A stretch of DNA of 64,000 nt from Ignavibacteriales bacterium (GCA_038214015.1 JBBQSH010000001.1:1407-65406), one strand, 5' to 3'; counted from the first letter of the stretch, positions 12,647 to 36,315 are shown. Numbers and translations: made by a program. Notes: generated from the sequence alone by a model not told the origin.

Positions 12647-12648
12647 TA

Positions 12649-15096: not shown

Positions 15097-16737
15097 GTGA
15101 AGTTTTACTACCTTGTTTTCTTTCTGATTTCACAAATAATGTTTGTTAATTGCCATACTTCTCTCTCCAATGATATTTTTATCCGAACAAATCAAATTGG
15201 TTTCTTTCCCGATGATTTAAAAACTGCTGTAATACTTTCAAAAACCAATTTACAGGGTAAGCCATTTTATATCTTAGAAAACAATTCTAGTGAAATAAAA
15301 TTTGAAGGCAGTGTAGCAGATTCTCCATCAGTTTATGGGAATTTTAATTTTTGTTATGAAATTGATTTTTCAAGTCTAAACACCACAGGCACATACAAAA
15401 TAAAATTGGCGGATACCGAATCTTATCAATTTCAGATTGGTAATTTAATCTTTAATAATGTAAGAGATTCACTCAGCCTTTTTTTTAAAGCACAACGCTG
15501 CGGACCAACAAATCCAATATTGCACCAGCCTTGTCATCTTTCGGACGCCGCCAAAATTATTGGTTATAAAGATTCAACTGCTCGAGATTTAACCGGCGGC
15601 TGGCATGATGCGGGTGATTATGTTAAGTTTTTAAAAACTACTGCTTATACAACATATCTATTATTATTTAGTTATGAATTTGATTCCCAAAAATTTGGAT
15701 ATGATTTAGATAAAAATGATGTTCCCGATATTTTAGAAGAAGCAAAAGTTGGGCTTGATTGGTTATTAAGATGTAATGTGGATGATCATACATTAGTCTC
15801 TCAAGTGCAAAATGAATCCGATCATGACATCGGATGGCGATTACCTGAAAATGATAGTCTGCAATTTGATCGCCCGGCTTTTGTTAGCATAGGAAAAAAT
15901 ACAATTGGTATTTATAGCGCAGCACTTGCCTTGGCATCTAGAATCTGGAAGGAGAAATTTTATGATGAAAATTTTGCAGCCATCTGTCTAAAAACATCTG
16001 AAAGATTTTATTCTCTCAGGAATAATGTACAGAATATTGATACAACATTTTCAAATCATTATCCTGAAAAAGATTTTAATGGAAGATTAGCTCTCGCATC
16101 TGTAGAACTTTATAACAGCACTAATTCTGAAAAATATCTTGAAGAAGCATTTGAATATGGCAATAAAGCCGGATCAGATTTCTGGTGGAGTGTTGGGGAT
16201 ATCAACTCTTTATCTCACTATAAAATTGCACTTCACAATTCTGATTTTACAAAATACATTTATCAAAATCTTAAGCACTCTAAAAAAACAAGTGATATAT
16301 CTTTTCTGCGTGAAGGATTACAGTATTCCTGGGGTACAACAAACTCTTTTCTGGGAGTAAGTTTGCAAACAATTCTTTACAAAAAACTGACTGGTTCCGA
16401 AGAGTTCGATTCATTAAATATTTATCAACGGGATTATGTCTTAGGCAGAAATCCGTGGGGTATAAGTTTTATTTACAATATCGGAACAAAATTTTCTAAA
16501 AACCTACATTCACAAGTAGCATTTTTTAATAGTGGATATTTACCAGGTGCCCTTACTGCAGGACCTGCACCTTCCAATCTTTTGGAAAAATATAAAATAC
16601 AGAGACAGAATACTGACGATGATTTTAATTCTCATTTAATAAAGTATTTTGATGATAGAATGGATTATATCACTAACGAACCAACAATTGTAGGAAACGC
16701 CACCGCGCTTTTTGTTTTCGGAGTATTAAGTAATTAA
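15097..16737 (+). CDS. secreted glycoside hydrolase family 9 endoglucanase with an N-terminal Ig-like domain
   Basis: GGWHDAGDYVKF catalytic signature, C-terminal NEPTIVGNA, an N-terminal signal peptide and a CelD_N-like module. Confidence 0.88.
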   Translation: MKFYYLVFFLISQIMFVNCHTSLSNDIFIRTNQIGFFPDDLKTAVILSKTNLQGKPFYILENNSSEIKFEGSVADSPSVYGNFNFCYEIDFSSLNTTGTYKIKLADTESYQFQIGNLIFNNVRDSLSLFFKAQRCGPTNPILHQPCHLSDAAKIIGYKDSTARDLTGGWHDAGDYVKFLKTTAYTTYLLLFSYEFDSQKFGYDLDKNDVPDILEEAKVGLDWLLRCNVDDHTLVSQVQNESDHDIGWRLPENDSLQFDRPAFVSIGKNTIGIYSAALALASRIWKEKFYDENFAAICLKTSERFYSLRNNVQNIDTTFSNHYPEKDFNGRLALASVELYNSTNSEKYLEEAFEYGNKAGSDFWWSVGDINSLSHYKIALHNSDFTKYIYQNLKHSKKTSDISFLREGLQYSWGTTNSFLGVSLQTILYKKLTGSEEFDSLNIYQRDYVLGRNPWGISFIYNIGTKFSKNLHSQVAFFNSGYLPGALTAGPAPSNLLEKYKIQRQNTDDDFNSHLIKYFDDRMDYITNEPTIVGNATALFVFGVLSN

Positions 16738-16927: not shown

Positions 16928-18133
16928 ATGAAAAAAAGCGTTCAATTATTCCGTTCCGGTATTCCAATCGTTGATAACGCTTGGGGAGGATTTTATCACG
17001 GCGGAACATATTTATTAGTTGGTGAAAAAAAATCCGGCAAAACTTTATTAAGTCTTCAATATGCTGTAGAGGCTGCAAAGAATAAACAAGTTTGTCTTTA
17101 CTTCACAAACTCTCGCCCTAAAGATTTGATAATTCACGCAGCATCCATTGATATCGATCTTGAAAATTACATTAATCAAAATACAATTATTGTTGTACGT
17201 GTTGCACGACCAACAGAAACCACTGAATTTAAAAGCAGGGATGAATTTTTAAGTGATTACCTCCATGATATTATATCTGTAATCAATCAGTATAATCCGA
17301 CAAGAATAATATTTGACGAATTGACACCGTATGTGGAGTATGAAAATCTTAATAGTCTTAGAGAATCATACGGTTCGATGATTGAATCAATTGAAGATTT
17401 AGGTATTACAAGTCTATTTATTTTAAGGGAACCTGCGGCTCAATCTTCTAAAATGATTTTTAATGTTTTGAATTCATTTGCAACAGGTATAATTCAGCTT
17501 CATAAAGCCGAAGATAGTGAAGAACAGCAGCCTGGCATAATTGATATCACTCCAAATATCGGGCATACCGAAGGAAAATTTAAAGCAAATTATTTTATAG
17601 AACCTTACAAAGGTATTACCACAGATTTTAAGAGTACCAAACGATCAACCAGAGAAAATATCTTACCGGAAATAACAGAATTGATACCAACCAAGACAGG
17701 CGGTTCAAATTCTCCGGAATATTTAGTCCCAAACATTTATAGCATTAATGATTTTAAACTTATTATCAATAATCAGATCGCATTGTATAAAACTACAGGA
17801 CAAATGTTTACAATTTTGTCACTCAGCCTTAATTTAACGAGTCCATCACTACCACGAATCTCACTTGAACAATTAAGCTATTCTGTAAAATCAGTTGCTC
17901 ATAAGAAAGATAAAATCTGCACAATCGAGGATAAAATTTATATTCTTATAACTAAATCTGATGATAAATTAATTGATGATTTCATTTCAAAAGTTCACCG
18001 AACATTAAGCAGCAACGGATCAACTAATGTATCTTATTTAATGTTAAAAGTAAATGACTCTATGAATAGTGCTGATGATGTCTTCAAAGAATTTGAAAGT
18101 GAAATTGCCAGAATTCAATTAAATCAGAGATAG
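16928..18133 (+). CDS. KaiC/RecA-superfamily ATPase with a C-terminal domain of uncertain type (possibly degenerate GGDEF-like)
   Basis: SGIPIVDNAWGGFYHGGTYLLVGEKKSGKT (Walker A) and RIIFDELT (Walker B). The C-terminal ~135 aa have no canonical motif. Confidence 0.7.
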   Translation: MKKSVQLFRSGIPIVDNAWGGFYHGGTYLLVGEKKSGKTLLSLQYAVEAAKNKQVCLYFTNSRPKDLIIHAASIDIDLENYINQNTIIVVRVARPTETTEFKSRDEFLSDYLHDIISVINQYNPTRIIFDELTPYVEYENLNSLRESYGSMIESIEDLGITSLFILREPAAQSSKMIFNVLNSFATGIIQLHKAEDSEEQQPGIIDITPNIGHTEGKFKANYFIEPYKGITTDFKSTKRSTRENILPEITELIPTKTGGSNSPEYLVPNIYSINDFKLIINNQIALYKTTGQMFTILSLSLNLTSPSLPRISLEQLSYSVKSVAHKKDKICTIEDKIYILITKSDDKLIDDFISKVHRTLSSNGSTNVSYLMLKVNDSMNSADDVFKEFESEIARIQLNQR

Positions 18134-18148
18134 AATTGACTATAGAAG

Positions 18149-20995
18149 ATGAAATTATTTTTCTATCAATTACTTATTCTGAACCTAACTTTATTTAGCA
18201 CTTCTATTTTTTCTCAAAATTACAACTCCTCTAATTATAAAGCAGAAGCTCTTCAACTGATTAGTTCGGGACGGTATGGTGAAGCGATAGACGTATTAAA
18301 TAAATATGTCTCTGCAAATCCAAACTCCGCAGAGGGATTTAATTTGCGTGGTGTGTGTTACGAAAAAAGAGGTAACTATGAATATGCTGTTTACGATTTT
18401 CGAACCGCGAAAAAACTTACACCCAACGATGATGAAATCTCATCAAACCTAAACAGAACAACTTCTGATTGGTACAAAATCCTTTACAATAAAATCGAAG
18501 GACATAAAAGAGAAATTGCTATCAATTCCAACATTGCTAAAAATTATCTTGAGATAGGGAAGTGCTATAAAAATTTAGGCAACTGGAATGAGGCTGAAAT
18601 TTGGTATGATATATATTTAGAAAAAGAAACTGCTTCTTCTGATGAGATAATTCGTTACTCTGAAATATTAGCTAAGAACAACCATATTTCTAAAGGTGAA
18701 CCAATTTTAAGATCTTACACAGAACACTTCTCTGATGATCATAGATTGTGGTCAAGATACGGATACTTTACACTTTGGCTTGGTAAAAATAAAATTGCAA
18801 TCGAAGCATTTACCAAATCCTTAGAGATACGACCATACTTTAAAGAAGCGATGGATGGATTAGATTTAGCCAAAGGTAAGGGATACATTTACTCTATTAA
18901 CGATACCACCTCGCGGTTCAATTATGGAATGCAGCCAACTGCTAAGCAATATGAAATTGATAGATTATATCGTGTTATAAAAAATAATCCTTCCGATAGT
19001 GAGAGTAGATTTAAACTTGTTGATGAATTGATTACTGCAAACCGATTTGAAGAAGCGTATGAACAATTACGAATTTTATCATCGGACTTTGCTGATCTAG
19101 ACAGATTTAAAGACTTATGGTTAAAGGTAACTACGCTAAGAAAATCCTATTACGCGGATCGCATTAGATTTTATGAAGAAAAGTTGAGCAAAGATCCTGC
19201 GAACAAAGAAGCACTTTTAGAATTAGCAAAATTCTATTCTTATAATAATAATTATACGTTGGCTGCGAATCTTTACAAAAGTTATCTGTTAAAATATCCG
19301 AATGATTATGAAGTAAGATATAAATTAGCGCAAATTTTAATGTGGCAAAATAATCTTTGCGAAGCCGCTGCGGAAGCTGAATATCTGCTTAAATCATTGC
19401 CGGATAATAAAAATTATGTGTTATTGGCTGCTCAAATCAATTATTGGTTAGATAAAGATTTAGTTTACACACAATCACTTTTTGAAAAAGTATTGGTATT
19501 GGATTCCCAAAACAGTGAGGCTATGTACGGATTGGCAAATCTTTATGTCCGAAGTAACAAACTTGCTGATGCTGAAAAATTAATTAATAAAATATCTTTG
19601 TATGATAGCTCTACTACAAAATTTGTTTTACTCCAAAAAAGTCTTGAAGTCGCGAAAATTCAAAATGAGTTAGTTGAATCTAATAAGATATTAGAGGAAG
19701 CAAGAATGTATTCTTCAAATAAAGATTATGATTCAGCTATAAAATCTTTTAACGAATATCTCTTAAATGATCCAAATAATAAGTCAGTAAAACTTGAGCT
19801 GGCTAATGTTTACATTGCAAATTTCGAATTGAATAAGTCAATAAAAATTTATGATGAGTTGCTGAAATCAAACAGCGATTATGAAATAGAAAAACAACGT
19901 GCAAAAGTTTATCTATGGAATGGTGATTCGCTTTTAGCACTTAAAGAATTTAGAAAATTGAATCAAAAATATCCTGATGATGTAGAAGCTAAATTACTGC
20001 TTGGTGATGCTTATTTGCAAAATGGGCAAGTGCAAAATGCAAGAATCGTTTATGAAGATCTTCTACTTAAATCTCCGGACTCGCATATAATTAAAACACG
20101 TTTAGGGTGGCTTGGCGGAAGCGATAAGTTTTCATTTGAAAAATTTCCAACATATATACAATTAATTCCCAGAGCATCATACTTTACTGATAATACAGAT
20201 TTTGGTTATTCAAACCTTGGTTTTGGTTTTGATTTAGGTGTAACAAATTTTCTTACTTTTGGGTTATCTGCTGCACGTGGTCAACTATCATCGGCTGAAG
20301 ATGATTTGAGGTTTAATCAGATTAAAGGATCAGCGTACGTAAGATTTAACGAAATATTTTCAGGAGTTGGCAGCTTTGGACAGACATACTTTGTTAATGA
20401 TCTCCAAGAAAATATTATAGAACTGTCTTTAACTGCGCAGAAAAAAAATATTTTTAATGTTACAGCATTCTTAAATTATTCTGATGCAGCGTTTATACTT
20501 TACTCACCATTTTTAGTTAACACCAGATTGAATGCGTATTATTTTGGTCTTAATGGCGAATATAAGTTTAAAAATAATTTAGTTGTATCCGGAAAATATT
20601 CATACATAGATGTCTCAGATGATAACTCAGGAAATCAATTTGTGGCAAGATTAGGAAAAGTTTTTGAATCCGATATAACTGCCGGTTACGAATATTATTT
20701 CTATTCTTTTAAAACAGAAACTCAGCTTTATTGGAGTCCGAAGAATTTTGAATCACATTCTATCTGGGCAGATTGGATCCTTTATAAGGATAACACATTT
20801 GATTTTACTATTGGCGGCAAAATTGGACTAATCCTACAAAATGATTTTATACTCTCCGAATTTTATGCTTCAATTAACTATCAAATTGTAAAAAACCTTC
20901 TTTTTCAAACTAGATTTACCACAGGAAGTTCGTTTAGATCCAATACTGGTTATAGATCAAATTCTATCCAGGCAAGTTTAATCTGGGGATTGTAA
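18149..20995 (+). CDS. outer-membrane exopolysaccharide export protein candidate: signal peptide, long TPR array, C-terminal beta-barrel (PgaA/BcsC/PelB-like architecture)
   Basis: Signal peptide MKLFFYQLLILNLTLFSTSIFSQ, about 650 aa of TPR-like repeats, and a final ~290 aa (from about nt 20130) with an alternating hydrophobic/aromatic beta-strand pattern. Confidence 0.7.
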   Translation: MKLFFYQLLILNLTLFSTSIFSQNYNSSNYKAEALQLISSGRYGEAIDVLNKYVSANPNSAEGFNLRGVCYEKRGNYEYAVYDFRTAKKLTPNDDEISSNLNRTTSDWYKILYNKIEGHKREIAINSNIAKNYLEIGKCYKNLGNWNEAEIWYDIYLEKETASSDEIIRYSEILAKNNHISKGEPILRSYTEHFSDDHRLWSRYGYFTLWLGKNKIAIEAFTKSLEIRPYFKEAMDGLDLAKGKGYIYSINDTTSRFNYGMQPTAKQYEIDRLYRVIKNNPSDSESRFKLVDELITANRFEEAYEQLRILSSDFADLDRFKDLWLKVTTLRKSYYADRIRFYEEKLSKDPANKEALLELAKFYSYNNNYTLAANLYKSYLLKYPNDYEVRYKLAQILMWQNNLCEAAAEAEYLLKSLPDNKNYVLLAAQINYWLDKDLVYTQSLFEKVLVLDSQNSEAMYGLANLYVRSNKLADAEKLINKISLYDSSTTKFVLLQKSLEVAKIQNELVESNKILEEARMYSSNKDYDSAIKSFNEYLLNDPNNKSVKLELANVYIANFELNKSIKIYDELLKSNSDYEIEKQRAKVYLWNGDSLLALKEFRKLNQKYPDDVEAKLLLGDAYLQNGQVQNARIVYEDLLLKSPDSHIIKTRLGWLGGSDKFSFEKFPTYIQLIPRASYFTDNTDFGYSNLGFGFDLGVTNFLTFGLSAARGQLSSAEDDLRFNQIKGSAYVRFNEIFSGVGSFGQTYFVNDLQENIIELSLTAQKKNIFNVTAFLNYSDAAFILYSPFLVNTRLNAYYFGLNGEYKFKNNLVVSGKYSYIDVSDDNSGNQFVARLGKVFESDITAGYEYYFYSFKTETQLYWSPKNFESHSIWADWILYKDNTFDFTIGGKIGLILQNDFILSEFYASINYQIVKNLLFQTRFTTGSSFRSNTGYRSNSIQASLIWGL

Positions 20996-21178
20996 ACTTT
21001 TACTTATACAATTTTTTAGCAAAATCTTAATTTTCGCTCTTGTTTGATAATGATACACAATAAATTTAAATCCAATATTGGTATTATTATTTTGTAAATT
21101 CATTCGAAATAAATGTTAAATAAAATGAAGATAATGGCATTATTATTGAAAAATTTGAACAAATCATCATCCGAATAA

Positions 21179-22603
21179 ATGAAAATAAATCAGCTTGTCG
21201 ATCGTGCTAAAATAACTATTTCGAACAGGGAAGATGAGAAAAAAGGAGAGAATCTCGGGCAAAAATATTTACGAAGAATACTCGTAAGCGGTATTGTTTC
21301 TCTTTTACTGATCTTAGTAATAGTATATACTTTACCTTACACCATTTTATCATTCAGTTCACTATTTGAGTATTCAACAATTATTGCTCTTGTTATTTTT
21401 CTTTTCATCCTTCTTGTAAGATACTTTGCCATATTAATTATGGCATATTTATACCTGAATGAATACACATTTTCTGATACGAATGGTTATGCTCCATTTG
21501 TTTCTATAATAGTTCCCGTTTTTAACGAAGGTAAAATAATTAGAAAATCAATTCTATCTCTGCTTAATCTTGATTATCAGAATTACGAAATAGTTGTTGT
21601 TAATGATGGTTCAACCGATGATACAAAACAAGTTGCTGAATCTATGGTTGGTTTTCAGGATGGTAAGTACGGAAAGATTAAAATTTCATTAATCAATCAG
21701 CCAAATTTGGGAAAAGCACGAGCACTAAATGCCGGCATATATTTTTCAAAAGCTGATTTTCTTCTTTGCATGGATGGAGACTCTCAGCTTGCCCCGGAAT
21801 CTATAAAAGTTGCAGTACGACATTTTATACATCCTAAAATTGGTGCGGTTGCTGGCAATGTAAAAGTTCTTAACAGAAAAAGATTTTTTACAGATCTTCA
21901 GGCATTGGAATATATTGAAGGCTTAAATATGGCTCGCAGTGCACAGAGTTATATTAGACTGGTAAATATTATTCCCGGTCCAATTGGAATCTTTAGAAGA
22001 AAAGCGATAGAACAAGCAGGTTATTATTCAAGTGATACTTATGCTGAAGATGCTGATTTAACATTAAAGATTTTATCAAAAGGCTGGAAGATTTATTACG
22101 AGCCAAAATCTATTTCTTATACTGAAGCTCCTGTAACATTACAGCAGCTTCTAAAGCAAAGATACAGATGGACGAGAGGGATTCTTCAGTCATTACGAAA
22201 ACATAAAAAATTAATGTTTAACCCTACAGTTAATTTAGGGCACACATTTATATTATGGGTAATGTCTTATGAAGCTCTTATTTGGCCGACAATGAATATA
22301 GCAGCAAATGCATTTTTTATTTTTGCAGCATTATTTTTTGGATTTTCACACTTGATCTTTTTCTGGTGGGCAGGATTAGCAATTTTAGATCTTGTTACTG
22401 CGCTTTATTGTGTTGCGGTAGAAAAAGAAGAATTTAGGCTAATCTGGTATGCAATTATTTACAGAATGTTTTTTATTTTAATTATAGATATTTGTAAAAC
22501 CATGTCAACTATCGAGGAATTTCTTGGAATCAGAATGACGTGGGGAAAATTAGAGCGAAGTAGTTCACCTAAATCAGATACAATTGCAGTTAATACTAAT
22601 TAG
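21179..22603 (+). CDS. processive family-2 glycosyltransferase (PgaC/IcaA/NodC-like polysaccharide synthase)
   Basis: N-terminal TM pair, VVNDGSTD, CMDGDS (DXD), AEDADLT, and QRYRW (Q-x-x-R-W, nt 22157-22171). C-terminal TM bundle and no PilZ domain. Confidence 0.85.
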   Translation: MKINQLVDRAKITISNREDEKKGENLGQKYLRRILVSGIVSLLLILVIVYTLPYTILSFSSLFEYSTIIALVIFLFILLVRYFAILIMAYLYLNEYTFSDTNGYAPFVSIIVPVFNEGKIIRKSILSLLNLDYQNYEIVVVNDGSTDDTKQVAESMVGFQDGKYGKIKISLINQPNLGKARALNAGIYFSKADFLLCMDGDSQLAPESIKVAVRHFIHPKIGAVAGNVKVLNRKRFFTDLQALEYIEGLNMARSAQSYIRLVNIIPGPIGIFRRKAIEQAGYYSSDTYAEDADLTLKILSKGWKIYYEPKSISYTEAPVTLQQLLKQRYRWTRGILQSLRKHKKLMFNPTVNLGHTFILWVMSYEALIWPTMNIAANAFFIFAALFFGFSHLIFFWWAGLAILDLVTALYCVAVEKEEFRLIWYAIIYRMFFILIIDICKTMSTIEEFLGIRMTWGKLERSSSPKSDTIAVNTN

Positions 22604-22611
22604 GAAATTAA

Positions 22612-23064
22612 ATGGAACTTATCCCGATACTATCTACTATTATTCTTGTTGCCACAATATGTACCTTCATATTGGCAATCGGGGCATATATTCTTTATAA
22701 AGTTCGAGAGGGAAAACCACAGCATAGTTATCAGACTAAACCCGCAACTGTGCAAGGTGAACTTGTTGTTCCATCAGAAGCAATCTATACTAAGGATTCT
22801 ACTCGAGTTGAACGCACAAATATTAAAAATGTTGAACCTGGAGTTACAAGAGAAGAATACACAAAGCAGCACCAGCCATCACAATCAAAACATACGCCTG
22901 AACCTCGTGGATATAAAATTGAAGAAGAAAAAGTTGAGAAACGAAAAGTTCGGGTTAGACCGCAAGAAAGATTTAGTGATGAAAATAAATTCCTGAAATA
23001 CACTTCTGAAGGTTACATACCTACGCAGGAAGATAGAAATTCAGGGGAAGTGAAGTGGCGGTAA
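22612..23064 (+). CDS. small single-pass membrane protein with a highly charged tail (occupies the PgaD/IcaD position)
   Basis: N-terminal TM helix IPILSTIILVATICTFILAIGAYILY followed by a K/E/R/Q-rich region. It starts 8 nt after the GT2 stop and overlaps the next gene by 10 nt. Confidence 0.5.
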   Translation: MELIPILSTIILVATICTFILAIGAYILYKVREGKPQHSYQTKPATVQGELVVPSEAIYTKDSTRVERTNIKNVEPGVTREEYTKQHQPSQSKHTPEPRGYKIEEEKVEKRKVRVRPQERFSDENKFLKYTSEGYIPTQEDRNSGEVKWR

Positions 23065-24953
23065 ATAATTTTTTTGGTATAAGGATAAATCAATTTTTTA
23101 TCTTTGTTTCGGGTTTCGTTATACTCATTTCAGCGATTCTTGTCTATTATTTTATTCTTCGTGGAATCTACGGTCGATTCGACACTTCAGAAGTTCTTCC
23201 TAACTCAAATATTATAGAAGATTTTTTATTTGGTAAGGAACCGGAAGTTGCAATTCTTTATTCCAAATACACAGAAAATACTTTACCAGTCGGCAGTACA
23301 TGGCTTAATGATAATTTATCTACGTGGAAAATATTTCTTGATAATCTAAATCTTAAATATGAAATAATTTCAGATCAGAAAATAGAAAACGGAGATCATC
23401 AAAAGTATAAACTGATAGTATTACCGGGAACAAAATCTTTAAGTGAAAAAGAAGCCTTGCAGATAAAAAAATATTTAGAAAATGGCGGAAGTGTTTTTGC
23501 TACAGGAGGAATCGGATCATATTCCAACGATGGTAAATGGCGTGGATGGGAATTCCTTAATCAGGTTTTTGGAGTGCAATTTTCTCACGAACTAAAACCA
23601 AATGAGTTTTCTAAAATACATACAGTGTGCGGAAGCCTGCCAATTACTGCAAATATTCCAACCGGATTTCCTCTAAAAGTTGCAACATGGGACAGACCAA
23701 TGGCAGTTGAAGTTTTGGATCCGAGAACCACTCAAGTAAGTTTTTGGTACAACTATAGAATGGATGATGGACTTGTTCGTGAAGAGATTAAAAAATCTGC
23801 AGGCATAGCTTATGGAAATTTTGGCAAAGGAAGATTTATGTGGATGGGATTTGAGTTGAATTCCATAATCGGTGTGCAGGAGGATTACATTTATTTTGAA
23901 AGACTTTTTAATAACTCAATAAAATGGTTAATGTATTTTCCGATTGCGTATGTAAGAGATTGGCCTACGGGATACGAAGCCGCTGCAGTTGTTGCTCCTG
24001 TTCTTACAAACGATGTTGATAACATCAATAATATTTTGCCGATCATAAAAAATGAAGGAATATCTGCCACTTTTTTTGTTGATCCGGCAACAGCGGAAAA
24101 TAACAGAGAACTTGTTAGAAAAATTTCTTCCTATGGAGAGATAGCCGCGTTGGTTGATATTGGTTATTTAGCCTCTGTGAATGATAGGTTCAATAAGCTT
24201 AATTCATATGCAGAACAATCTAAAAAACTAAGTGCAGCAAAAGAAACCTTAGAAAAAATTTCCTCAAGTAGTGTCTCAGGTTTTTTACCATACTACGGTT
24301 TGTTTGATCAGAATACTTTGAATGCAGTAATTAATTCAAACTACAAATATGTTCTTACAGATTCTCTTACTGATCGATCAGTTCCTAAAACAATTATTCG
24401 TGGTGATAAGAGAATTGTTACGATGACAAAAACTGCGCGTGATGATTATGAAATTATAAGAGATTTTGGATTAACTCTTCCGGAATTTCAATTTTATACT
24501 TATCAGGAGGATTTAGATCGGGTTCTTTTTGAAGGTGGTATGTATATCTTAAAACTTCATACAGAATATCAATGCAGAAGTGATTATGCAAGTGTGTTGA
24601 AAGATGTAATCAAAGATCTTAAAAAGAAAAAATTCTGGATTGCAACTGCAAATGAAATTCAAAAGTGGTATGAAAAAAGAGATTATATTGAGATCAAGGC
24701 TGATAGAAGAGGTAAAACTCGTGTAGCATTAAAAGTCTCAAATCCGGGTATTGAGGCTATAAATAATCTGGTTATTGATCTTGATCTAAATGACTTTGCA
24801 CAAAACATTACAATCGGTTCAGAAATTATTGGAACTAAAACTGCAAGCGTAAAACATTCAGCTGGCTCACAAATGGTTTATTTATTTATTGATGATTTAA
24901 AACCAGGCGAATCAAGGCAATATTATATTGATTATGACAAGGTCGCTTTTTAA
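23055..24953 (+). CDS. membrane-anchored protein with a GATase1-like N-domain and a diverged NodB/polysaccharide-deacetylase-like C-domain
   Basis: N-terminal TM helix. KLIVLPGTKSLSEKEALQIKKYLENGGSVFATGG resembles a class-I amidotransferase-like (ThuA/beta-galactosidase trimerisation) fold. The C-domain has LTNDVDN, ATFFVDP and FLPYYG at NodB motif positions but lacks the metal-binding His pair. GTG start. Confidence 0.5.
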   Translation: MAVNNFFGIRINQFFIFVSGFVILISAILVYYFILRGIYGRFDTSEVLPNSNIIEDFLFGKEPEVAILYSKYTENTLPVGSTWLNDNLSTWKIFLDNLNLKYEIISDQKIENGDHQKYKLIVLPGTKSLSEKEALQIKKYLENGGSVFATGGIGSYSNDGKWRGWEFLNQVFGVQFSHELKPNEFSKIHTVCGSLPITANIPTGFPLKVATWDRPMAVEVLDPRTTQVSFWYNYRMDDGLVREEIKKSAGIAYGNFGKGRFMWMGFELNSIIGVQEDYIYFERLFNNSIKWLMYFPIAYVRDWPTGYEAAAVVAPVLTNDVDNINNILPIIKNEGISATFFVDPATAENNRELVRKISSYGEIAALVDIGYLASVNDRFNKLNSYAEQSKKLSAAKETLEKISSSSVSGFLPYYGLFDQNTLNAVINSNYKYVLTDSLTDRSVPKTIIRGDKRIVTMTKTARDDYEIIRDFGLTLPEFQFYTYQEDLDRVLFEGGMYILKLHTEYQCRSDYASVLKDVIKDLKKKKFWIATANEIQKWYEKRDYIEIKADRRGKTRVALKVSNPGIEAINNLVIDLDLNDFAQNITIGSEIIGTKTASVKHSAGSQMVYLFIDDLKPGESRQYYIDYDKVAF

Positions 24954-24974
24954 TCTAAAAAACATCTTAAAAAA

Positions 24975-26597
24975 TTGTTCAAACATTCTAACATATTTTC
25001 ATTTCTAATTATCGTTTGTGGAATTTTAATTTCACATAGTACGATTATAGCTCAACCTAAAATTGCAATTCTATATTCTGAATTGACTGAAAAAATTAAT
25101 AATTCAAATTCTGTTAAAGTTATCGATGCAATCACTGCTTGGGAATTGTTTTTAATGCAGGATAAAATTCCTTACACTGTTATTTATGATGAGGATCTTG
25201 AATCCGGAATAGACGATGAGTTTGATATTCTGATATTACCTTCTGTAAATTTTATTTCAAATGAACAGATGGAAGAATTGCAAAAATTTTTAGCATCCGG
25301 CAAATCAATCATTAGTTCGGGTTCAAAGTTATTATTTCAAGAGAATATTTTGAATGAGTATCAAAATCTTGAAACACTTTTTGGTTTAAGTAATTTAAAA
25401 ACTATGGATTCAGATAATTTAAGTTTCAGCCATTCACTAACACCAAATCATCTAAATCAATTTAGTATGTATGATGATTTGATATTACAAATCACTAATA
25501 AGAATCAAGTTTTATTATGCGAAGAAGTTAATATCAATCAGTCTGCTTGCGGATATATTTTATACGATACTGATTTTAATTCAAGGAAATCATCGATCTT
25601 ATTTGGAACAGTTGGAAGCAGCAGATTTTTATGGACTGGTTTTGATCTGGGTGATGTTATCGGCGGTAATTCAGATTTAAATGCCTTTAAACAGTTAATC
25701 TCAAATGCGATAACATGGATGGATAATCAACCGGATGTTTATATTGCAAATTTTAATGAGAGTCTGTCTTCACCTGTTATCGTTACTCTTCAATACAATA
25801 ACGCTCTGGAATTAGAACTGATTGATGTTTTGCAGAAAAATAATATTAGACCAAATCTAATTATTACACCTGATCAAAAAGTTTCAAAAGAAATGCTGGA
25901 CAAATTTAGCACCGATGAAATAATTCTTGAATTATCGGAAAGTAATTTTCCCAGCAGCTACTCTGCAAATGAGTTAATTGACAACTTCAATCGTGATAAT
26001 GAAATAAGTATATCTTTAATTCTTGTTGAGAAGAAATTTTTAGAAAATGGTGATTTAAGTTTCATTAGCGATGCAGGCATCAATAAAATTCTTTATAAAG
26101 AACAGGCACCTGGTCTTCCTAAAATTTTACATAAGGAGTTGTTGGTAATTCCATACGCAATATCAGAAAATATCCCAAGTTCCAACAATATGGTTAACTT
26201 TTTGAATTATAACCCCAAAATCAATTGTGATATTAATACTGAAGATGAATTACTTGGGAAGATAAATCACATAAAATCGCAACAGTACAATTTCACTACT
26301 CTAAATGAATTAGGTAAATGGTGGAACTTAAGAGAGCGAATTACTTGTGAAATTAAATATCCTTCTGAAAACGAAATTGAGATTTGGTTAACAAATAAAA
26401 ATTCAATTCTTCTTAACGATCTTAATGTTTTTTTTAACTCTGTTAAAAAAATTGATAGAAAATCTTTAACAATCTCTTTGAATAACTCATTGTTAGAATA
26501 CTACTTCGACAATGCTTCTGGTGCAATTGTTATAAAATTAGAAAATATTATTTCTAACTCGTTAAACAAGATCAAAATTAATTTTACTTTGATATAG
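24975..26597 (+). CDS. secreted paralogue of the preceding protein (same N-domain, more degenerate C-domain)
   Basis: Signal peptide. PKIAILYSE...FDILILPSVNFISNEQMEELQKFLASGKSIISSGS...RFLWTGFDLG parallels EVAILYSK...YKLIVLPGTKSLSEKEALQIKKYLENGGSVFATGG...RFMWMGFELN in the upstream gene. Confidence 0.45.
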   Translation: MFKHSNIFSFLIIVCGILISHSTIIAQPKIAILYSELTEKINNSNSVKVIDAITAWELFLMQDKIPYTVIYDEDLESGIDDEFDILILPSVNFISNEQMEELQKFLASGKSIISSGSKLLFQENILNEYQNLETLFGLSNLKTMDSDNLSFSHSLTPNHLNQFSMYDDLILQITNKNQVLLCEEVNINQSACGYILYDTDFNSRKSSILFGTVGSSRFLWTGFDLGDVIGGNSDLNAFKQLISNAITWMDNQPDVYIANFNESLSSPVIVTLQYNNALELELIDVLQKNNIRPNLIITPDQKVSKEMLDKFSTDEIILELSESNFPSSYSANELIDNFNRDNEISISLILVEKKFLENGDLSFISDAGINKILYKEQAPGLPKILHKELLVIPYAISENIPSSNNMVNFLNYNPKINCDINTEDELLGKINHIKSQQYNFTTLNELGKWWNLRERITCEIKYPSENEIEIWLTNKNSILLNDLNVFFNSVKKIDRKSLTISLNNSLLEYYFDNASGAIVIKLENIISNSLNKIKINFTLI

Positions 26598-26629
26598 AAT
26601 GATTATTTGCAATCAGGATCAGATAAAAA

Positions 26630-27898
26630 ATGAATATATGGTTAAATAAAAGAAGAAAAATATTTGTACTTCTAATAACATTGCTTCTTCTCTTTTCACA
26701 ATCTTGCGCCGATCTTTCTTCTGATCCAAATCAAATTACCAATTCATCCAATTCCAAAATTCAAATAACTTCACCATCGAACAACGGAACTTTGATGGAA
26801 GGTTATAATGAAATTATTTATTCTTTAGCACAGCCAAATACCATCAAATTTATTGAGTTATATATCAATGGCACATTTGTTATAAATATTCCTCCAAACA
26901 GTAACGGTACAGCACCATCAATCAGCATCCAACTTGATTCCACTTACATCGGACAAAAATTAAATTTATATTTAATTTATTACGATACAGACGGCACATC
27001 GCAAAAAAGTAATACAGTAACCGAAGTGCTGGTAACAAATGATAACAGAGTTCCATTTAAACCTTATAATTTAGCTTTATTAAAATTCAATGATGGATCG
27101 GTCAATATTAGCTGGAAAGATTCTTCACGATATATTGAAAAGTATGAACTTTGGCGCAAAGTAAATCTTGATGGTGAATATTTATTGCATGAAGAGCTTT
27201 CTGGTAAAGCATATAATACCAATGATGATGTTCTCGATACGAGTAAAATATATTTTTATAAAGTTCGGGGATACAAGAGTTCGGGATTTTCAGATTTTAG
27301 TGATGAAATAAACACAGCCGGAATAATTTCATCAGTAAATCTTTTACCTCCGACGAATCTTTCTGCGAGTGTAAATGGAATATCTAACGTTCGTTTAAAT
27401 TGGATAGACAATAGCGATAATGAAAACTATTTTGCTGTTCAAAGAAGTTCTGCAGGTGGAATCTTTAATCGAATTGCAGCAATTCCAAAAAACTCTGCGA
27501 CCTATCTGGATTCAGGGAATGGAATAGTAGTCGGTTCCACATACCTGTACAGAATAGTTGCATACAGCAATGAGGATTCAGCTATAAGTAATACAATTAG
27601 CATTAAGATTACTTCCGACATTTTATTACCGCCGACAAATCTTACTGCTACATATAATAGTTCAGTTAGAGTTATTCAATTAAATTGGAATAGTTCAGAC
27701 AATAATATTTTGTATTTTGATATCGAAAGAAAAACTGAATTAATCGACTTTACCCTTTTACGCAGAATTGACTCGAATAATAATCTTTATCTGGATTTTA
27801 GTGTTGAAACAAATAAAGTTTACACATACAGAGTAAGAGGATATGATTTGAATCGATTTTCTGAGTACTCAAATGAAGTTACAATCTCTACATTTTAA
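26630..27898 (+). CDS. lipoprotein with three fibronectin type III-like repeats
   Basis: Signal peptide ending LLFSQSC. Three repeats follow the pattern PPTNL(S/T)A...W.D.S.NE.YF..(Q/E)R...Y.YR(V/I).(A/G)Y. Confidence 0.65.
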   Translation: MNIWLNKRRKIFVLLITLLLLFSQSCADLSSDPNQITNSSNSKIQITSPSNNGTLMEGYNEIIYSLAQPNTIKFIELYINGTFVINIPPNSNGTAPSISIQLDSTYIGQKLNLYLIYYDTDGTSQKSNTVTEVLVTNDNRVPFKPYNLALLKFNDGSVNISWKDSSRYIEKYELWRKVNLDGEYLLHEELSGKAYNTNDDVLDTSKIYFYKVRGYKSSGFSDFSDEINTAGIISSVNLLPPTNLSASVNGISNVRLNWIDNSDNENYFAVQRSSAGGIFNRIAAIPKNSATYLDSGNGIVVGSTYLYRIVAYSNEDSAISNTISIKITSDILLPPTNLTATYNSSVRVIQLNWNSSDNNILYFDIERKTELIDFTLLRRIDSNNNLYLDFSVETNKVYTYRVRGYDLNRFSEYSNEVTISTF

Positions 27899-27916
27899 TT
27901 AAGTGGTTTTAATAAA

Positions 27917-30900
27917 TTGGAAATAAAAAATAAAGAGTGGCTGTATATACTTGGCAGAAATTCCGATTACCATGGTGACCCGCTCATTATTTTAGATGAA
28001 TCATTTGAAATAGTATTTACTAATCAAAAAGCCGCCTCTCTTTTTCTTATTGATGACCATCATATTACCTTAGAACAGGTTTTTGAAAAAGAAACGGTTA
28101 ATGAACTAACAGATTTTATCGGACCAGTAATTAATACCTTCCAAAAAAATATTTTTAAAAATATTTCAGTCAATTTAAAGTCAGGAAACAGTTCCGCATT
28201 TGATTTATCCATCGAACCAATTCAAACTGAAGAAACGTTAAATGTTATAATAGTTTTTAGAAGTATTGAAAATATTAATGCATATGATCTTTTGAGTAAG
28301 ATTAAAATTACTTCTTTCAAAAATATTTTATCTGATAAAAATAATCCTGCGAAAACAATAATATCGGAATTACAAAGCCTGGCTCCATTTACAATAATTT
28401 CTTTAAAGAAAGTTCAACATATAATTGATCAATATGATTACCCGATTTGGATTAAGGATGTTGAAAGCAAACTGTTTGCCATCAATAATACTTACGCTAG
28501 TATTTTAGGGATTGAAAATTCTTTTGCATCGGGTAAAAAACATGAGACATTTTTACCGCCTCATCAGAAAACAATTTATAAAATGATGGACCAATATGTT
28601 ATTCTTAATTCGCAGCAAATAATTTTAGAAGGATTTAGTAAAAAAGTTAAAAATTTTGAAGTTATTCAGAATATTATTCAAGTTCCTTTAGTAGATAATT
28701 TTAATAAAATACTTGCGATAGTTGGTCTAATTGTTGATAATCAGTATGATTATTATAACTTTTGGGGAGAAAAAGAATTCTTTAGTGCTTTAGTTAGTAG
28801 TTTCCCAAAACCTTCGGCATACATAAATTCTGATGGGGTGATCAAAGGATTTAATGAAAAATTCAAAGAATTCTTTGAGTTAGAAAATGGACAAATATCT
28901 GATAAAAGAATTGATGAAATATTTCCACCTAATGTTGTTAGTAAAATCAATTCATTTATTCAAAATGATTTAATAGAAGAATCTTTTCAATTATTTGAGG
29001 TGATGACTCCTGCTGATTCTTCACAATCTAATGTTCAACTGTTTTTATTAAAAATATCAAATTCAGAAAAACATAAGTCAAATATTTTTGTTACGATTGA
29101 AACGCTTGCTGACACAATAAATTCTGAAGACGAACTCCAAAACATTTTAATGCATAGAGGAAAGATGTTCGAAATTTTAATACAAAAAAATCCTGAACCA
29201 ATTTTTGTTTACGATAAAGAAAATCTAAAATTTCTTGAGGTAAACGATGCTGCAATAAAATTGTACGGATACAGCCGTGATGAATTTCTTCAAATGGATC
29301 TTACTGATCTTTATGCACCGGAAGATATTCAGACCTTATTAGATTCTTTTGGTAATGAATCATCGGAAGCTAGATTCAGTAAACCCTTTAGACACAGAAA
29401 AAAAAATGGTTCAATTGTTCTTGTAGAGATAAGTAATACTTCATTCAAGTTTAATGATAGAGAAGCTCACTTTAATATTGTTAAGGATATTACTGATAGT
29501 ATAGCAAAAGACAAACAATTTCAAATGCTCAGGATTATTTTTAATGAGTCCGATTTAATGATTTTCAGCACCGATTCTTCCGGCTTTGTAACATTCATAA
29601 ATAAAAACGTAACAAAAACCCTCGGTTACACTAATGAAGAAATTCTTCAATTATCCTTTGCAAGTCTTGTTGCTGATGATGACCGTGGAATTGTAAACAC
29701 TTCAATATTTCAATCTCAAGTAAAAGATTCTGTGGTCCTGAAATCAAAATTTAAGGATGCACATGGAAATAATATTGAAGCTGAAATTTATGCATCTACG
29801 ATTCTTGATTTTGATGGTGGTATTGATTCATTTACAATTATAGTAAAACCAGTTTCAGAAAAATCAAGTACAACCGAACCAAAAGAAATCGTTAAAGAAG
29901 TAATTAAAGAGGTTGTAAAAGAAGTTGTTGTTGAAAAACCAGGCAGCAGCAGCCAGAAAAAAACTCTTATTCCCGATTCAAATTTTCTTTCCGGAATGTT
30001 TCATGAAATTTTAACTCCAATTAATGTAATAATTGGATTTTCTCAGGAATTAATAAGCAGTACAGAAAATCCTACTGAAGAACAATTAGAGGCAGCCGAA
30101 ATAATTAATCAAAACCGCATTAAAATGATGGATACGATGAATGCCGTTGTTGAGTATTCAGATATAATGCAAAATAAATCCCCACTAAAAATTGAATATG
30201 TAACGATAACAGATCTTATCGAAAAATTAGATAACAACATAAAAGACATAACAGGAATAAATGATATTCAGTTTGCATATGGCAAAATATCTTCATCCTT
30301 AAAATTTAAATCAGATACGCAAAAATTTGAAAACTTTATTCTTTCATTAATTAAAGTTGTATCAAGATTAAGCAAAGACAAAAAAGTTTACTTCTCAGCT
30401 TTTACAGTTGATACAGAATCATTTATTATCGGCATTAGTGATCAGTACGGCAATCCTTCTGAATACGTTGCCAATGTTCTTGAACAGGTTTTTGGTAATG
30501 ATAAAGATCCTAAAGATTTTGGCTTGCCTAAATTAACTACCTATTTTGGGAGAATACTTCTAAAATATTTAGGTGGAAAATTTTATAAATCGTCCTCAGA
30601 TACCTATCGAAACGAAACTGGATTTATTTTTCCGATCGTATTTTCGGATATTTCAAAAAATAATATATATGATTCGGTTAATGAAGTTATCTCTTCAGTG
30701 ACTTCACAAGAAAATTTTAATGAGTATGATATTAATGCTTCAGTTAAGGTTGATGTAGAGCAAGAAGATTATTCTCAAGAGACTTTAGAAGTAAATGATA
30801 AAGACTTAGATGAAGGTTACACTAAAGATGATACAGAAGAATTAGCTTCTGACTCTTCGGATGATATCTTCAAACCTGTCCAGCCAATTTCACAGGAACT

Positions 30901-31501
30901 ACCTTCAAAAATAGTTGAAGAAAAACCAGTTGAAGATGAATCAATCCAACAGGAAATACACACATTTGAAAAGTTGAATCAGAGTGCACCTGAGGAGTTA
31001 AGTGATAGTGAATACAGCCAGCAAGAATCCGATGTTGAAGAAGATGTTTCTGAAACAATTAAAGATGAATTAAGTTCTGATGCTGATAACTTACTGGGAG
31101 TTAAACCACCACAATCATTAGATCTAACAAAATTAAACTGTCTTTATATAGAAGATCAGGTTGATTCTCAGATTCTATTTAAAGTGCAAATGAAAGAATT
31201 ACATGATGTTAAGTTTGCTGTAAGTTTTGAAGAAGCACAACAGGTAATGCTTAATTATCAATTTGATTTTATTGTGATGGACATAAATTTACAAGGTGAG
31301 TATAACGGACTTGATGCGTTGAAAATTATAAAAACCATGCCCGCATTTAGTTCAATTCCAATTATTGCCGTTACTGCTTATGTTCTTCCTGGTGATAAAG
31401 AAAAGTTTATTGTTGCCGGATTTGATGATTTTATATCTAAACCAATTTTCAAAGAAAAGATGATAGAATCTTTGGAAAAGATATTTCTCTCAAAGTACTA
31501 G
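27917..31501 (+). CDS. multi-PAS hybrid sensor kinase-like protein with a degenerate ATPase domain, acidic linker and C-terminal receiver domain
   Basis: The H-box FHEILTPINVIIGFSQEL is present. N-box Asn and the G1/G2 glycines are not recognisable (SLIKVVSRL, ISDQYGN, DFGLPKL). A D/E/S-rich linker of ~140 aa follows. The receiver has VMDINL (Asp) and ISKP (Lys). TTG start per the track. Confidence 0.7.
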   Translation: MEIKNKEWLYILGRNSDYHGDPLIILDESFEIVFTNQKAASLFLIDDHHITLEQVFEKETVNELTDFIGPVINTFQKNIFKNISVNLKSGNSSAFDLSIEPIQTEETLNVIIVFRSIENINAYDLLSKIKITSFKNILSDKNNPAKTIISELQSLAPFTIISLKKVQHIIDQYDYPIWIKDVESKLFAINNTYASILGIENSFASGKKHETFLPPHQKTIYKMMDQYVILNSQQIILEGFSKKVKNFEVIQNIIQVPLVDNFNKILAIVGLIVDNQYDYYNFWGEKEFFSALVSSFPKPSAYINSDGVIKGFNEKFKEFFELENGQISDKRIDEIFPPNVVSKINSFIQNDLIEESFQLFEVMTPADSSQSNVQLFLLKISNSEKHKSNIFVTIETLADTINSEDELQNILMHRGKMFEILIQKNPEPIFVYDKENLKFLEVNDAAIKLYGYSRDEFLQMDLTDLYAPEDIQTLLDSFGNESSEARFSKPFRHRKKNGSIVLVEISNTSFKFNDREAHFNIVKDITDSIAKDKQFQMLRIIFNESDLMIFSTDSSGFVTFINKNVTKTLGYTNEEILQLSFASLVADDDRGIVNTSIFQSQVKDSVVLKSKFKDAHGNNIEAEIYASTILDFDGGIDSFTIIVKPVSEKSSTTEPKEIVKEVIKEVVKEVVVEKPGSSSQKKTLIPDSNFLSGMFHEILTPINVIIGFSQELISSTENPTEEQLEAAEIINQNRIKMMDTMNAVVEYSDIMQNKSPLKIEYVTITDLIEKLDNNIKDITGINDIQFAYGKISSSLKFKSDTQKFENFILSLIKVVSRLSKDKKVYFSAFTVDTESFIIGISDQYGNPSEYVANVLEQVFGNDKDPKDFGLPKLTTYFGRILLKYLGGKFYKSSSDTYRNETGFIFPIVFSDISKNNIYDSVNEVISSVTSQENFNEYDINASVKVDVEQEDYSQETLEVNDKDLDEGYTKDDTEELASDSSDDIFKPVQPISQELPSKIVEEKPVEDESIQQEIHTFEKLNQSAPEELSDSEYSQQESDVEEDVSETIKDELSSDADNLLGVKPPQSLDLTKLNCLYIEDQVDSQILFKVQMKELHDVKFAVSFEEAQQVMLNYQFDFIVMDINLQGEYNGLDALKIIKTMPAFSSIPIIAVTAYVLPGDKEKFIVAGFDDFISKPIFKEKMIESLEKIFLSKY

Positions 31502-31525
31502 ATCAGTTTTACTTTTATGTTTAAT

Positions 31526-31557
31526 CCTCTTAATTCTAATAATTAAGGAGATTTTTT
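31526..31557 (+). terminator. Rho-independent terminator closing the 16928-31501 cluster
   Basis: CCTCTTAATT-CTAAT-AATTAAGGAG (8 bp plus one G-U and one mismatch) followed by T6. Confidence 0.6.
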
Positions 31558-31566
31558 ATTCCTCCC

Positions 31567-31611: not shown

Positions 31612-31630
31612 GCAATTATTTTATAAAGGT

Positions 31631-32260: not shown

Positions 32261-32334
32261 ATTTTTATAATTGATTATAATATCAAAGAAAATTATTCTG
32301 GTTCGAAATATTAAATCACAATCGAAGGTTATAA

Positions 32335-35970: not shown

Positions 35971-36315
35971 TCATCCCGGAGGCCAGTTCATTTTTCTACC
36001 GCCAAGTAAGTGCAGATGTAAATGATAAACTTCCTGTCCACCATTTTCTCCACAATTAAAAACTAACCTAAAACCATCTTCAGCTATGCCCAAATCTTTA
36101 GCAATTTTATTTGCAGCATCAATCATGTCTCCAAGCAATACGGCGTGTTCGCTACCTTTTATATCAGTTACTTTTGGTATCTCTATTTTAGGAATAATTA
36201 AAATGTGAACAGGTGCTTGTGGATTGATATCTTTAAATGCTAACACATTTTCTGTTTCATAAATAATATTAGCAGGAATTTCCTTGTTAATAATTTTAGA
36301 GAAGATAGTTGACAT
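35971..36315 (-). CDS. histidine triad nucleotide-binding protein (HinT-like)
   Basis: HLHLHLLGG triad, 114 aa. The 1-nt overlap with the upstream regulator gene indicates co-transcription. Confidence 0.88.
   Translation of the reverse strand: MSTIFSKIINKEIPANIIYETENVLAFKDINPQAPVHILIIPKIEIPKVTDIKGSEHAVLLGDMIDAANKIAKDLGIAEDGFRLVFNCGENGGQEVYHLHLHLLGGRKMNWPPG

Follow-up and report, generated by a model that had tools for sequence, protein, structure and literature searches.

To our knowledge, few synthase-dependent exopolysaccharide systems are understood (alginate, cellulose, poly-N-acetylglucosamine (PNAG), Pel and a few more), and nearly all of them come from Proteobacteria or Firmicutes. 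A 64-kb window of genomic DNA from an Ignavibacteriales bacterium (GCA_038214015.1, JBBQSH010000001.1:1407-65406) raises the question of whether a further system of this kind exists in another phylum, and of what it is made. Positions 16928-31501 of this window carry a run of same-strand genes in which an earlier note had recognized an exopolysaccharide cluster with an unusual list of parts. We conclude that the cluster probably specifies an exopolysaccharide machine of the synthase-dependent, trans-envelope kind, with a core that is related, and not orthologous, to the Pga system.

Coordinates are those of the whole 64-kb window, which has a GC content of about 32%; the genes and sites of the cluster lie on the + strand. 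The nearest relatives are metagenome-assembled Ignavibacteriaceae genomes, with identities of up to 97% for the family 2 glycosyltransferase (GT2). Open reading frame (ORF) calling returned eight same-strand ORFs between 16928 and 31501, and not the nine genes announced earlier; the parts list given at the time also names eight proteins. The spacers between genes 1 to 8 measure 15, 183, 8, -10 (an overlap), 21, 32 and 18 nucleotides (nt), in agreement with the short gaps of 8-32 nt, the overlaps and the single 183-nt gap first described.

A GT2 synthase and an export porin

Gene 3 (21179..22603) encodes a predicted membrane-embedded GT2 synthase of 474 amino acids (aa). The protein displays the motifs VNDGSTD, DGD (residues 199-201), AEDAD (with ED at 290-291) and QRYRW (327-331), and two N-terminal and about three C-terminal transmembrane helices are predicted; a Pfam scan matched GT2 families and found no PilZ domain. 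All the attributes of the synthase listed in the earlier note (the DXD, ED and QRYRW motifs, a PgaC/IcaA-like helix layout, no PilZ) are thus present. The enzyme also groups with processive synthases, as had been proposed: its best NCBIfam model is TIGR03937 PgaC_IcaA (196 bits, E 8.8e-58), followed by NodC and CelA, its PDB matches include hyaluronan and cellulose synthases, and it shares 29% identity with Escherichia coli PgaC over 346 aa (E 3e-47). Similarity to E. coli BcsA is lower (21% identity, E 3e-14). BcsA, also a GT2, has eight transmembrane helices and carries PilZ at its C-terminus; gene 3 has no PilZ and about five helices, and the CelA models score far under their cut-off. The gene 3 product is a homolog of PgaC, and not an equivalog.

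Gene 2 (18149..20995; 948 aa) encodes a predicted secreted protein with a signal peptide, a tetratricopeptide repeat (TPR) array (residues ~30-655) with TPR matches in Pfam, and a C-terminal domain (residues ~670-948, nt 20156-20992) for which a porin-type beta-barrel had been suggested. An AlphaFold 2 (AF2) model of the last 300 residues forms 16 antiparallel strands (predicted local distance difference test score, pLDDT, 86.6; predicted template modelling score, pTM, 0.80). Searched with Foldseek, this modelled barrel finds PgaA as its best match (4y25, TM-score 0.74/0.76, E 2e-9, root-mean-square deviation 4.0 Å), followed by BcsC (9b8a, 0.69) and PelB (9h80, 0.66). No further match has a high TM-score, generic porins of the OmpG, OprD and FadL types reaching 0.36-0.53 only. 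At the sequence level the relationship is faint: no PDB entry was retrieved with a sequence profile of the barrel, and similarity of gene 2 to PgaA is weak (TIGR03939 at 55 bits for a cut-off of 367; hhalign E 0.002). The model nevertheless reproduces the architecture typical of PgaA, TPRs followed by a 16-strand C-terminal porin, and we take gene 2 to be a predicted export porin of the PgaA/BcsC/PelB type. BcsC and PelB likewise combine a periplasmic TPR superhelix with a 16-strand C-terminal barrel, but gene 2 scores far under the cut-offs of their sequence models (NF008520 at 49 bits against 858). Their partner synthases are also of other types, BcsA carrying PilZ and PelF being a GT4, and the PelC-like lipoprotein ring of the Pel system has no equivalent in the window cluster. 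In four Ignavibacterium-type loci (L051, L061, L064, L075) the TPR-porin gene is absent and gene 1 stands directly before the GT2 gene.

Gene 4 (22612..23064; 150 aa) follows the synthase gene after 8 nt and encodes a predicted bitopic membrane protein. Its single N-terminal transmembrane helix is about 90% conserved in the alignment of all lineages examined, and is kept even in GC-rich loci where the identity of gene 1 is only 22-24%. A variable charged linker leads to a conserved C-terminal motif, KF.KYTSEGY...G..KWR. No Pfam match was obtained for this protein. PgaD and IcaD are small synthase partners with two transmembrane helices, which gives PgaC and PgaD together about seven. The earlier note had placed gene 4 in the PgaD/IcaD position: the location directly 3' of the synthase gene is as described, but the likeness does not extend to the protein itself, which has one helix instead of two and no significant similarity to PgaD (one BLASTP comparison, E 0.003 across 47 aa) or to BcsF.

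Conservation of the cluster in related genomes

We surveyed genome loci at one genome per species, counting only loci with enough flanking sequence, and complemented them with a scan of metagenomes that used the gene 4 helix as seed, from which the best 80 of 327 relatives were taken. Genes 1, 2 and 4 surround the GT2 gene in the same order in 59 of 63 genome loci and in 35 of 35 metagenome loci. Overall, a six-gene core (the ATPase-like gene 1, the TPR-porin, the GT2, the small membrane protein and the two CE4-like paralogs described below) is found in order in about 100 Ignavibacteria loci. The best 80 metagenome relatives are all low in GC and Ignavibacteria-like, and share this gene order; they give the survey more depth and no added breadth. 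Searches started from genes 1 and 5, as close queries, were saturated with near-identical proteins.

Such figures may have a trivial cause. Housekeeping genes flanking the cluster (an SNF transporter, a fatty-acid hydroxylase and LexA) are also syntenic across Ignavibacteriaceae, so that the GT2 might make a cell-bound glycoconjugate or oligosaccharide and merely lie beside TPR-barrel, ATPase and kinase genes of unrelated function; the existence of gene 1 homologs away from any GT2, and the four loci that have no TPR gene, would fit this view. Because near loci share their flanks, distant relatives of gene 1 constitute stronger evidence. Three GC-rich loci, L080 (50.5% GC), L083 and L081 (60.6% GC), display the same core order amid unrelated flanks, with identities of 22-24% for gene 1, 51-57% for the GT2, 31-34% for gene 4 and 26-33% for gene 5; the TPR-barrel gene is present in all three, as is the second gene 5 paralog where the sequence is readable (L080 and L081). 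Two further loci, L167 (42% GC) and L169 (38% GC), keep the cluster within still other surroundings. Added to this are a barrel that specifically resembles polysaccharide export porins, genes that overlap or lie 8-32 nt apart, and a gene 4 helix conserved along with the GT2. We therefore regard mere synteny as highly improbable. The gene set had been expected to be co-conserved in related genomes, and its order is kept in Ignavibacteria and also in contigs of 50-61% GC, where the neighbouring genes are others. With the barrel, the grouping of the GT2 and this co-conservation all in agreement, the initial proposal of a synthase-dependent exopolysaccharide system with unusual parts holds. Genes 7 and 8 belong to the cluster only in low- to mid-GC loci of Ignavibacteria type.

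Weak GT2 matches in Bacillales (L071, L073, L074, L076, L077) were considered as relatives and rejected, as they represent a different synthase system. L074 is the one among them whose ORFs were scanned; its operon (7292-18294) contains an Hpt-GGDEF-REC gene, a HEAT-repeat protein, the GT2, a GAF-PAS hybrid kinase and a protein of 1099 aa that Pfam does not recognize. In L071, L073, L076 and L077, the GT2 is not accompanied by any other gene of the cluster.

Periplasmic proteins and a linked GH9 gene

Gene 5 (23055..24953) encodes a putative N-terminally anchored periplasmic protein in which a GATase1/GIFT-like domain and a degenerate CE4 domain are accompanied by a beta-rich domain at the C-terminus. 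Gene 6 (24975..26597) is a secreted and more diverged paralog (BLASTP 2e-21, 21% identity over 340 aa), whose presence and similarity vary among Ignavibacteriaceae. Pfam detects Polysacc_deac_1 in gene 5 (9.6e-8) together with ABC_transp_aux and GH42M, and a profile of the gene 5 family retrieves the CE4 structure 2j13 (1.7e-8) and a GH42 trimerisation domain (5.8e-5). Both proteins have the GATase1/GIFT-like domain and a CE4/NodB-like domain devoid of the His-His metal motif, which bears out the earlier description of two paralogous GATase1-like, degenerate NodB-like proteins. In gene 5, ALVDIGY stands where the H-x3-H motif would be and the Arg of RxPY is gone; both losses are found in Ignavibacteriaceae, but the homolog in L081 retains HADVH and RPPE.

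These proteins bear directly on the possibility of an orthologous pgaABCD-type system, producing partially deacetylated beta-1,6-N-acetylglucosamine with lineage-specific decorations. In E. coli, PgaABCD also comprises a TPR protein with a 16-strand barrel, a GT2 of about 450 aa with two plus three transmembrane helices, a small membrane protein whose gene follows that of the synthase, and a CE4-type protein in the periplasm; pgaABCD roles can be assigned to four of the six core parts. PgaA is the top match of the barrel, PgaC_IcaA is the best GT2 family, with 29% identity to PgaC itself, and the intact CE4 motifs of L081 also speak for this hypothesis. Several differences stand against it. 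The 196 bits of the synthase compare with an equivalog cut-off of 422, and gene 4 has one helix and no PgaD similarity. PgaB and IcaB are active CE4 deacetylases with an Asp-His-His metal site, and PgaB has in addition a GH153 domain; the CE4 domains of genes 5 and 6 are duplicated, fused to GIFT/GATase1 and devoid of metal ligands, gene 5 has no significant similarity to PgaB, and no GH153-type domain was detected in either protein by Pfam or by comparison with PgaB. Gene order differs, predicted sigma-54 control (see below) is a further difference, and gene 1, the GIFT domains, an FN3 lipoprotein, a kinase-like protein and a linked GH9 enzyme have no place in Pga. The last of these argues mildly against a beta-1,6-N-acetylglucosamine polymer, GH9 being a family of beta-1,4-specific enzymes. 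On balance, an orthologous PNAG system appears improbable, and we retain a Pga-related core that is not orthologous to it.

The GH9 gene (15097..16737) lies on the same strand upstream of gene 1, across a gap of 190 nt, and is absent from the earlier note. It encodes a putative lipoprotein with an N-terminal CelD_N Ig-like domain and a Glyco_hydro_9 domain (253 bits); the closest solved structures are the beta-1,4-endoglucanases 3x17 and CelD 1clc. The gene holds this place immediately before gene 1 in 48 of the 60 genome loci and in 25 of the 31 from metagenomes, and since it is kept before gene 1 in L167 and L169, its linkage to the cluster extends across three different upstream flanks. In cellulose systems, a periplasmic endoglucanase, BcsZ, belongs to family GH8. 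The linked hydrolase is a GH9 and not a GH8, but its role may be analogous, and we propose it as a candidate polymer-trimming enzyme in a BcsZ-type slot. In L080 (20622-21239) and L083 (11264-11568), both of about 50% GC, a gene of the PIG-L/LmbE family (N-acetylglucosamine-deacetylase type) stands in convergent orientation at the module's end, and GH9 is missing.

Gene 7 (26630..27898) encodes the FN3 lipoprotein that had been reported, with a Pfam fn3 match (2.8e-10) to its FN3-type repeats and a signal sequence containing a Cys. It is missing from many loci, including L080 and L081, and represents a lineage-specific accessory part.

A predicted KaiC-fold protein with a degenerate GGDEF domain

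The first gene of the cluster (16928..18133) encodes a predicted cytoplasmic protein of 401 aa. Residues ~9-225 match a single Pfam KaiC domain (PF06745, 1.3e-30), with Walker A (GEKKSGKT, 32-39) and Walker B (IIFDE, 127-131) motifs that are invariant across the family. In KaiC clock proteins, RecA-like domains occur as a tandem pair, strand 2 is followed by a catalytic Glu pair, and Ser/Thr residues serve as autophosphorylation sites. We rejected gene 1 as a clock KaiC: it has one domain, the NCBIfam KaiC models give 65 and 33 bits for cut-offs of 408 and 546, and in the alignment the position of the Glu pair is occupied by Thr followed by Asn or Ser.

The C-terminal 140 residues, searched alone, have no Pfam match. 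An exhaustive profile search, however, led to distant full-length relatives, one of which (P0316) matches Pfam GGDEF. Among the C-terminal domains of 15 diverse family members, 4 match Pfam GGDEF (best 8.6e-8) and 1 matches PelD_GGDEF, weakly. Compared with the PDB, the C-terminal profile aligns to the diguanylate cyclase 4urg (E 0.022), the residues IEDKI falling on the GGDEF motif. The AF2 model of gene 1, of moderate confidence (mean pLDDT 70.9), arranges the C-terminal domain in the order alpha-beta-alpha-beta-beta-alpha-beta-alpha, which is consistent with the GGDEF fold; in a Foldseek search with the full model, only KaiC/RecA-type structures appear among the 50 matches listed, leaving the C-terminal domain uninformed. 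From the Pfam matches of relatives, the PDB profile and the modelled order of elements, we read gene 1 as a KaiC-fold domain followed by a degenerate GGDEF domain (residues ~265-401). The GG[DE]EF active-site signature is not present in this predicted domain, IEDKI standing in its place, and the RxxD motif of the I-site, RDSD in P0316, reads HKKD in the window. With an intact P-loop and an I-site that lacks conservation, gene 1 may have ATP as its ligand instead of, or besides, cyclic di-GMP (c-di-GMP).

The identification of a KaiC/RecA-type ATPase in the earlier note is thus supported by the Pfam domain, but such a protein does have a precedent in cellulose systems. In BcsE, the c-di-GMP-sensing regulator of cellulose secretion of the E. 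coli type, the N-terminal domain has a RecA/KaiC fold, for which KaiC served as the modelling template, and its Walker A is degenerate; a degenerate REC domain and a degenerate, c-di-GMP-binding GGDEF domain follow (Zouhir et al. 2020, PMC7439463). Like gene 1, it is a cytoplasmic protein encoded within a synthase system, and its partner BcsF is a single-pass membrane protein of a topology comparable to that of gene 4. The two proteins match in kind at both ends. They differ in that gene 1 has no REC domain, has intact Walker A and B motifs where those of BcsE are degenerate, and carries HKKD in the window lineage in place of the RxxD through which BcsE binds c-di-GMP; no sequence homology is detected between them (hhalign probability 0.15%), and the BcsQ and BcsR partners of BcsE have no counterpart in the window cluster.

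We may then ask whether the whole cluster could be a divergent cellulose system, with GH9 in the place of BcsZ, gene 1 of BcsE, gene 2 of BcsC, gene 4 of BcsF and genes 5 and 6 of BcsB. The linked endoglucanase-type gene, the BcsE-like architecture of gene 1, the resemblance of the barrel to BcsC and the single-pass topology of gene 4 would all find a role under this hypothesis, and a catalytically degenerate CE4 would pose no difficulty, as no deacetylation step is required. The synthase is an obstacle, being nearer to PgaC than to BcsA and lacking both PilZ and the eight-helix layout. Furthermore, nothing like BcsB was recognized in the gene 5 family (hhalign probability 0.3%), homology to BcsE and BcsF is not detectable by sequence, and every NCBIfam Bcs model falls far under its cut-off. 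A cellulose system in this sense is therefore unlikely, and the Pga-related core remains our preferred interpretation.

Homologs of gene 1 also occur in other contexts. At L168:10001-21230, a gene 1 homolog and a PAS-HisKA-REC gene are located directly 5' of a Wzx/Wzy-type cluster (epimerase, SLBB, Wzz, flippase, Wzy_C) with no synthase module, which hints at a general polysaccharide regulator formed by this pair. On a contig of 62% GC, L085:4784-10062 holds an isolated gene pair beside dnaA/dnaN, coding for a KaiC-like protein of 606 aa and a TPR protein of 1150 aa; there is no GT2 nearby, and the C-terminus of the TPR protein aligns to the barrel family.

A predicted sigma-54 type promoter and candidate regulators

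The 183-nt spacer between genes 2 and 3 stands out from the other spacers of the cluster. In the locus alignment, it contains two conserved blocks within free-drifting AT-rich DNA. One is a predicted sigma-54 type -24/-12 element, TGGCATTATTATTGA (21135..21149), which begins 44 nt before the GT2 ATG and is the sole strict sigma-54 match in the 64-kb window. The other is a dyad of the form TGT-N11-ACA, TGTTTGATAATGATACA (21041..21057), a candidate upstream activator site. A canonical sigma-54 promoter has GG at -24 and GC at -12 with fixed spacing (TGGCAC-N5-TTGC). The window element reads TGGCAT-N5-TTGA, thus differing from the canonical TTGC at -12, where the C is replaced by A here and is present in several relatives. 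Between -35 and -52 relative to the GT2 start, 52 of 70 Ignavibacteriaceae loci have the pattern TGG[CT]A[CT]-N5-TTG, for a background of 0.0034 per 250 nt. About 47 of the 70 have the dyad 115-147 nt ahead of this start, mostly at -135 to -139, and in most dyad-bearing loci it is separated from the -24 element by about 94 nt. In the four loci that have no TPR gene, the sigma-54 motif is found 42-44 nt before gene 1 (4/4). The -24/-12 spacing, the position and the upstream dyad all agree, by sequence, with a sigma-54 promoter. Control of cell-exterior functions by sigma-54 and enhancer-binding proteins (EBPs) has been documented, and upstream dyads of the TGT-N10/11-ACA kind belong to this type of control (Francke et al. 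2011, PMC3162934); the window resembles these cases in its TGGCA/TTG spacing, its dyad and the presence of an NtrC-type regulator.

Because the 183-nt gap holds a conserved predicted promoter of this type, the cluster probably does not form a single transcript: the GT2 and downstream genes probably form a sigma-54-dependent unit apart from genes 1 and 2. The only other sigma-54-like match in the window, a loose one, is TGGTACTTTTTTTGA at 2198-2212 on the - strand. In L044 and L048, 1.3-1.5 kb separate the TPR gene from the GT2 gene in place of the 183-nt spacer, and in L169 (14458-15657) an extra gene of 399 aa with no Pfam match is inserted between them.

An NtrC-type regulator is encoded at 36315..37670 on the - strand, with Response_reg (8.9e-29), Sigma54_activat (1.8e-73) and HTH_8 domains in Pfam. 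Together with genes for a carboxyltransferase, a HIT protein and a protein of 212 aa that matches no Pfam family, it makes up a conserved block on the same strand (35971-36315, 36315-38305). Sigma-54-activator genes are also located close 3' of the kinase-like gene in L037, L045, L046 and L068; in L045, the block formed by the HIT protein and the bacterial EBP (bEBP) begins within a few nt of the kinase gene end. We propose the regulator as a candidate activator of the promoter at 21135, a link that we infer. No rpoN gene was seen in the window.

The kinase-like protein is encoded by gene 8 (27917..31501), the last of the cluster. It is a predicted cytoplasmic protein in which multiple PAS domains are followed by HisKA, a degenerate ATP-binding (CA) region, an acidic linker and REC. 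Pfam identifies PAS, HisKA and Response_reg, and the H-box (FHEILTP) and receiver Asp (IVMDINL) are intact; HATPase_c is not recognisable in gene 8 or in any homolog examined, which agrees with the PAS hybrid kinase with a degenerate ATPase domain described before. As it has no ATP-binding domain, the protein is more likely a phosphatase, a relay partner or a heterodimer partner than an autokinase. Homologs of gene 8 pair with gene 1 homologs even where synthase genes are missing (L082, L084, L168).

At the downstream end, a terminator had been announced at 31526-31557. An AT-rich hairpin followed by a U run is indeed found there (31523..31559), but its fold is weak (-6.2 kcal/mol, z = -0.6 relative to shuffled sequences) and a terminator scan did not call it; we regard it as a plausible, weak candidate for an intrinsic terminator. 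The lexA gene is located directly downstream of the cluster (31631-32260), and within 3 kb are a DUF5615/PIN-like gene (34388-34720) and a DinB-type (IMS) polymerase gene (34771-35961). In most Ignavibacteriota loci lexA adjoins the kinase-like gene, including L082 and L084, which have no synthase genes. An Rfam scan of 14000-32500, the 183-nt gap included, revealed no riboswitch or other known RNA at E <= 1.

A proposed exopolysaccharide machine

By analogy with PgaCD, BcsA and BcsE, we can sketch how the cluster might operate. The inner-membrane GT2 (gene 3) would polymerise a UDP-sugar and translocate the growing chain, probably aided by the single transmembrane helices of genes 4 and 5, which would bring the total to about seven helices, like that of PgaCD. 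Genes 5 and 6 would handle the chain in the periplasm; they are likelier to bind or guide the polymer than to deacetylate it, because the metal-binding residues are lost in the window lineage. The TPR array of gene 2 would then take over the chain, and the 16-strand PgaA-like barrel would export it. The GH9 lipoprotein would probably trim or release the polymer, and on this assumption a beta-1,4 linkage is favoured.

Two levels of control may be envisaged. Transcription of the GT2 and downstream genes would start at the sigma-54 promoter with its upstream dyad and would therefore need an EBP; this could conceivably be the REC-AAA+-HTH regulator at 36315-37670, fed by gene 8, which is a conjecture. 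Gene 1 would act post-translationally, in a BcsE-like manner, at the cytoplasmic face of the membrane.

Several observations weigh against this scheme, or against parts of it. The synthase does not reach the PgaC equivalog cut-off, and genes 4, 5 and 1 have no significant similarity to PgaD, PgaB, BcsF, BcsB or BcsE. Not every locus has GH9, which is lacking in 12 of 60 genome loci and in the GC-rich L080, L081 and L083. ATP hydrolysis by gene 1 is uncertain because the catalytic Glu pair of KaiC is missing, and c-di-GMP binding is unproven because the RxxD of the I-site, which reads HKKD, is not conserved in the window lineage. No canonical GGDEF cyclase was found in the window and the Ignavibacteria loci, which cover some 21 kb per genome and are uninformative on this point. 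Gene 1 homologs occur with the kinase-like gene alone (L082, L084, L168) or with the TPR-barrel gene alone (L085), and since they are thus found in the absence of synthase genes, the role of gene 1 may exceed the control of a synthase. Finally, the proposed bEBP is linked to the promoter by proximity only.

How new is this system? Full-text literature searches for the six-gene core or for the gene combination found no description of it, and a systematic survey of synthase-dependent operons (PMC7112194) makes no mention of Ignavibacteria, Bacteroidetes, Chlorobi or KaiC. The type of machine is familiar, and with four core parts in pgaABCD roles the list of parts is less foreign than first claimed. 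What is unfamiliar is the regulator, the pair of GIFT-pseudo-CE4 proteins, the link to GH9 and the predicted sigma-54 control. More tentatively, we may hypothesize an undescribed, synthase-dependent secretion class, present in Ignavibacteriota and in at least two unrelated GC-rich lineages, that would produce a beta-1,4 polymer which is neither canonical cellulose nor PNAG, with a synthase gated by the KaiC-fold, degenerate-GGDEF nucleotide sensor paired with the ATPase-less PAS-HisKA-REC protein. If this is true, a KaiC-type switch, a phosphorelay and sigma-54 would all be tied to matrix production.

Matrix polymers shape aggregation in activated sludge, anammox granules, sediments and hot-spring mats, all of them habitats in which Ignavibacteria abound. 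The cluster provides a defined candidate for a matrix-polymer machine in this phylum. It also offers, in the degenerate CE4 pair and the highly conserved gene 4 transmembrane helix, structural handles on the translocation channels of short GT2 synthases. A predicted RecA/KaiC fold joined to a dead GGDEF domain beside a synthase suggests that this principle now extends beyond enterobacterial cellulose, here with an intact P-loop, which could help to show the past function of the enigmatic N-terminal domain of BcsE.

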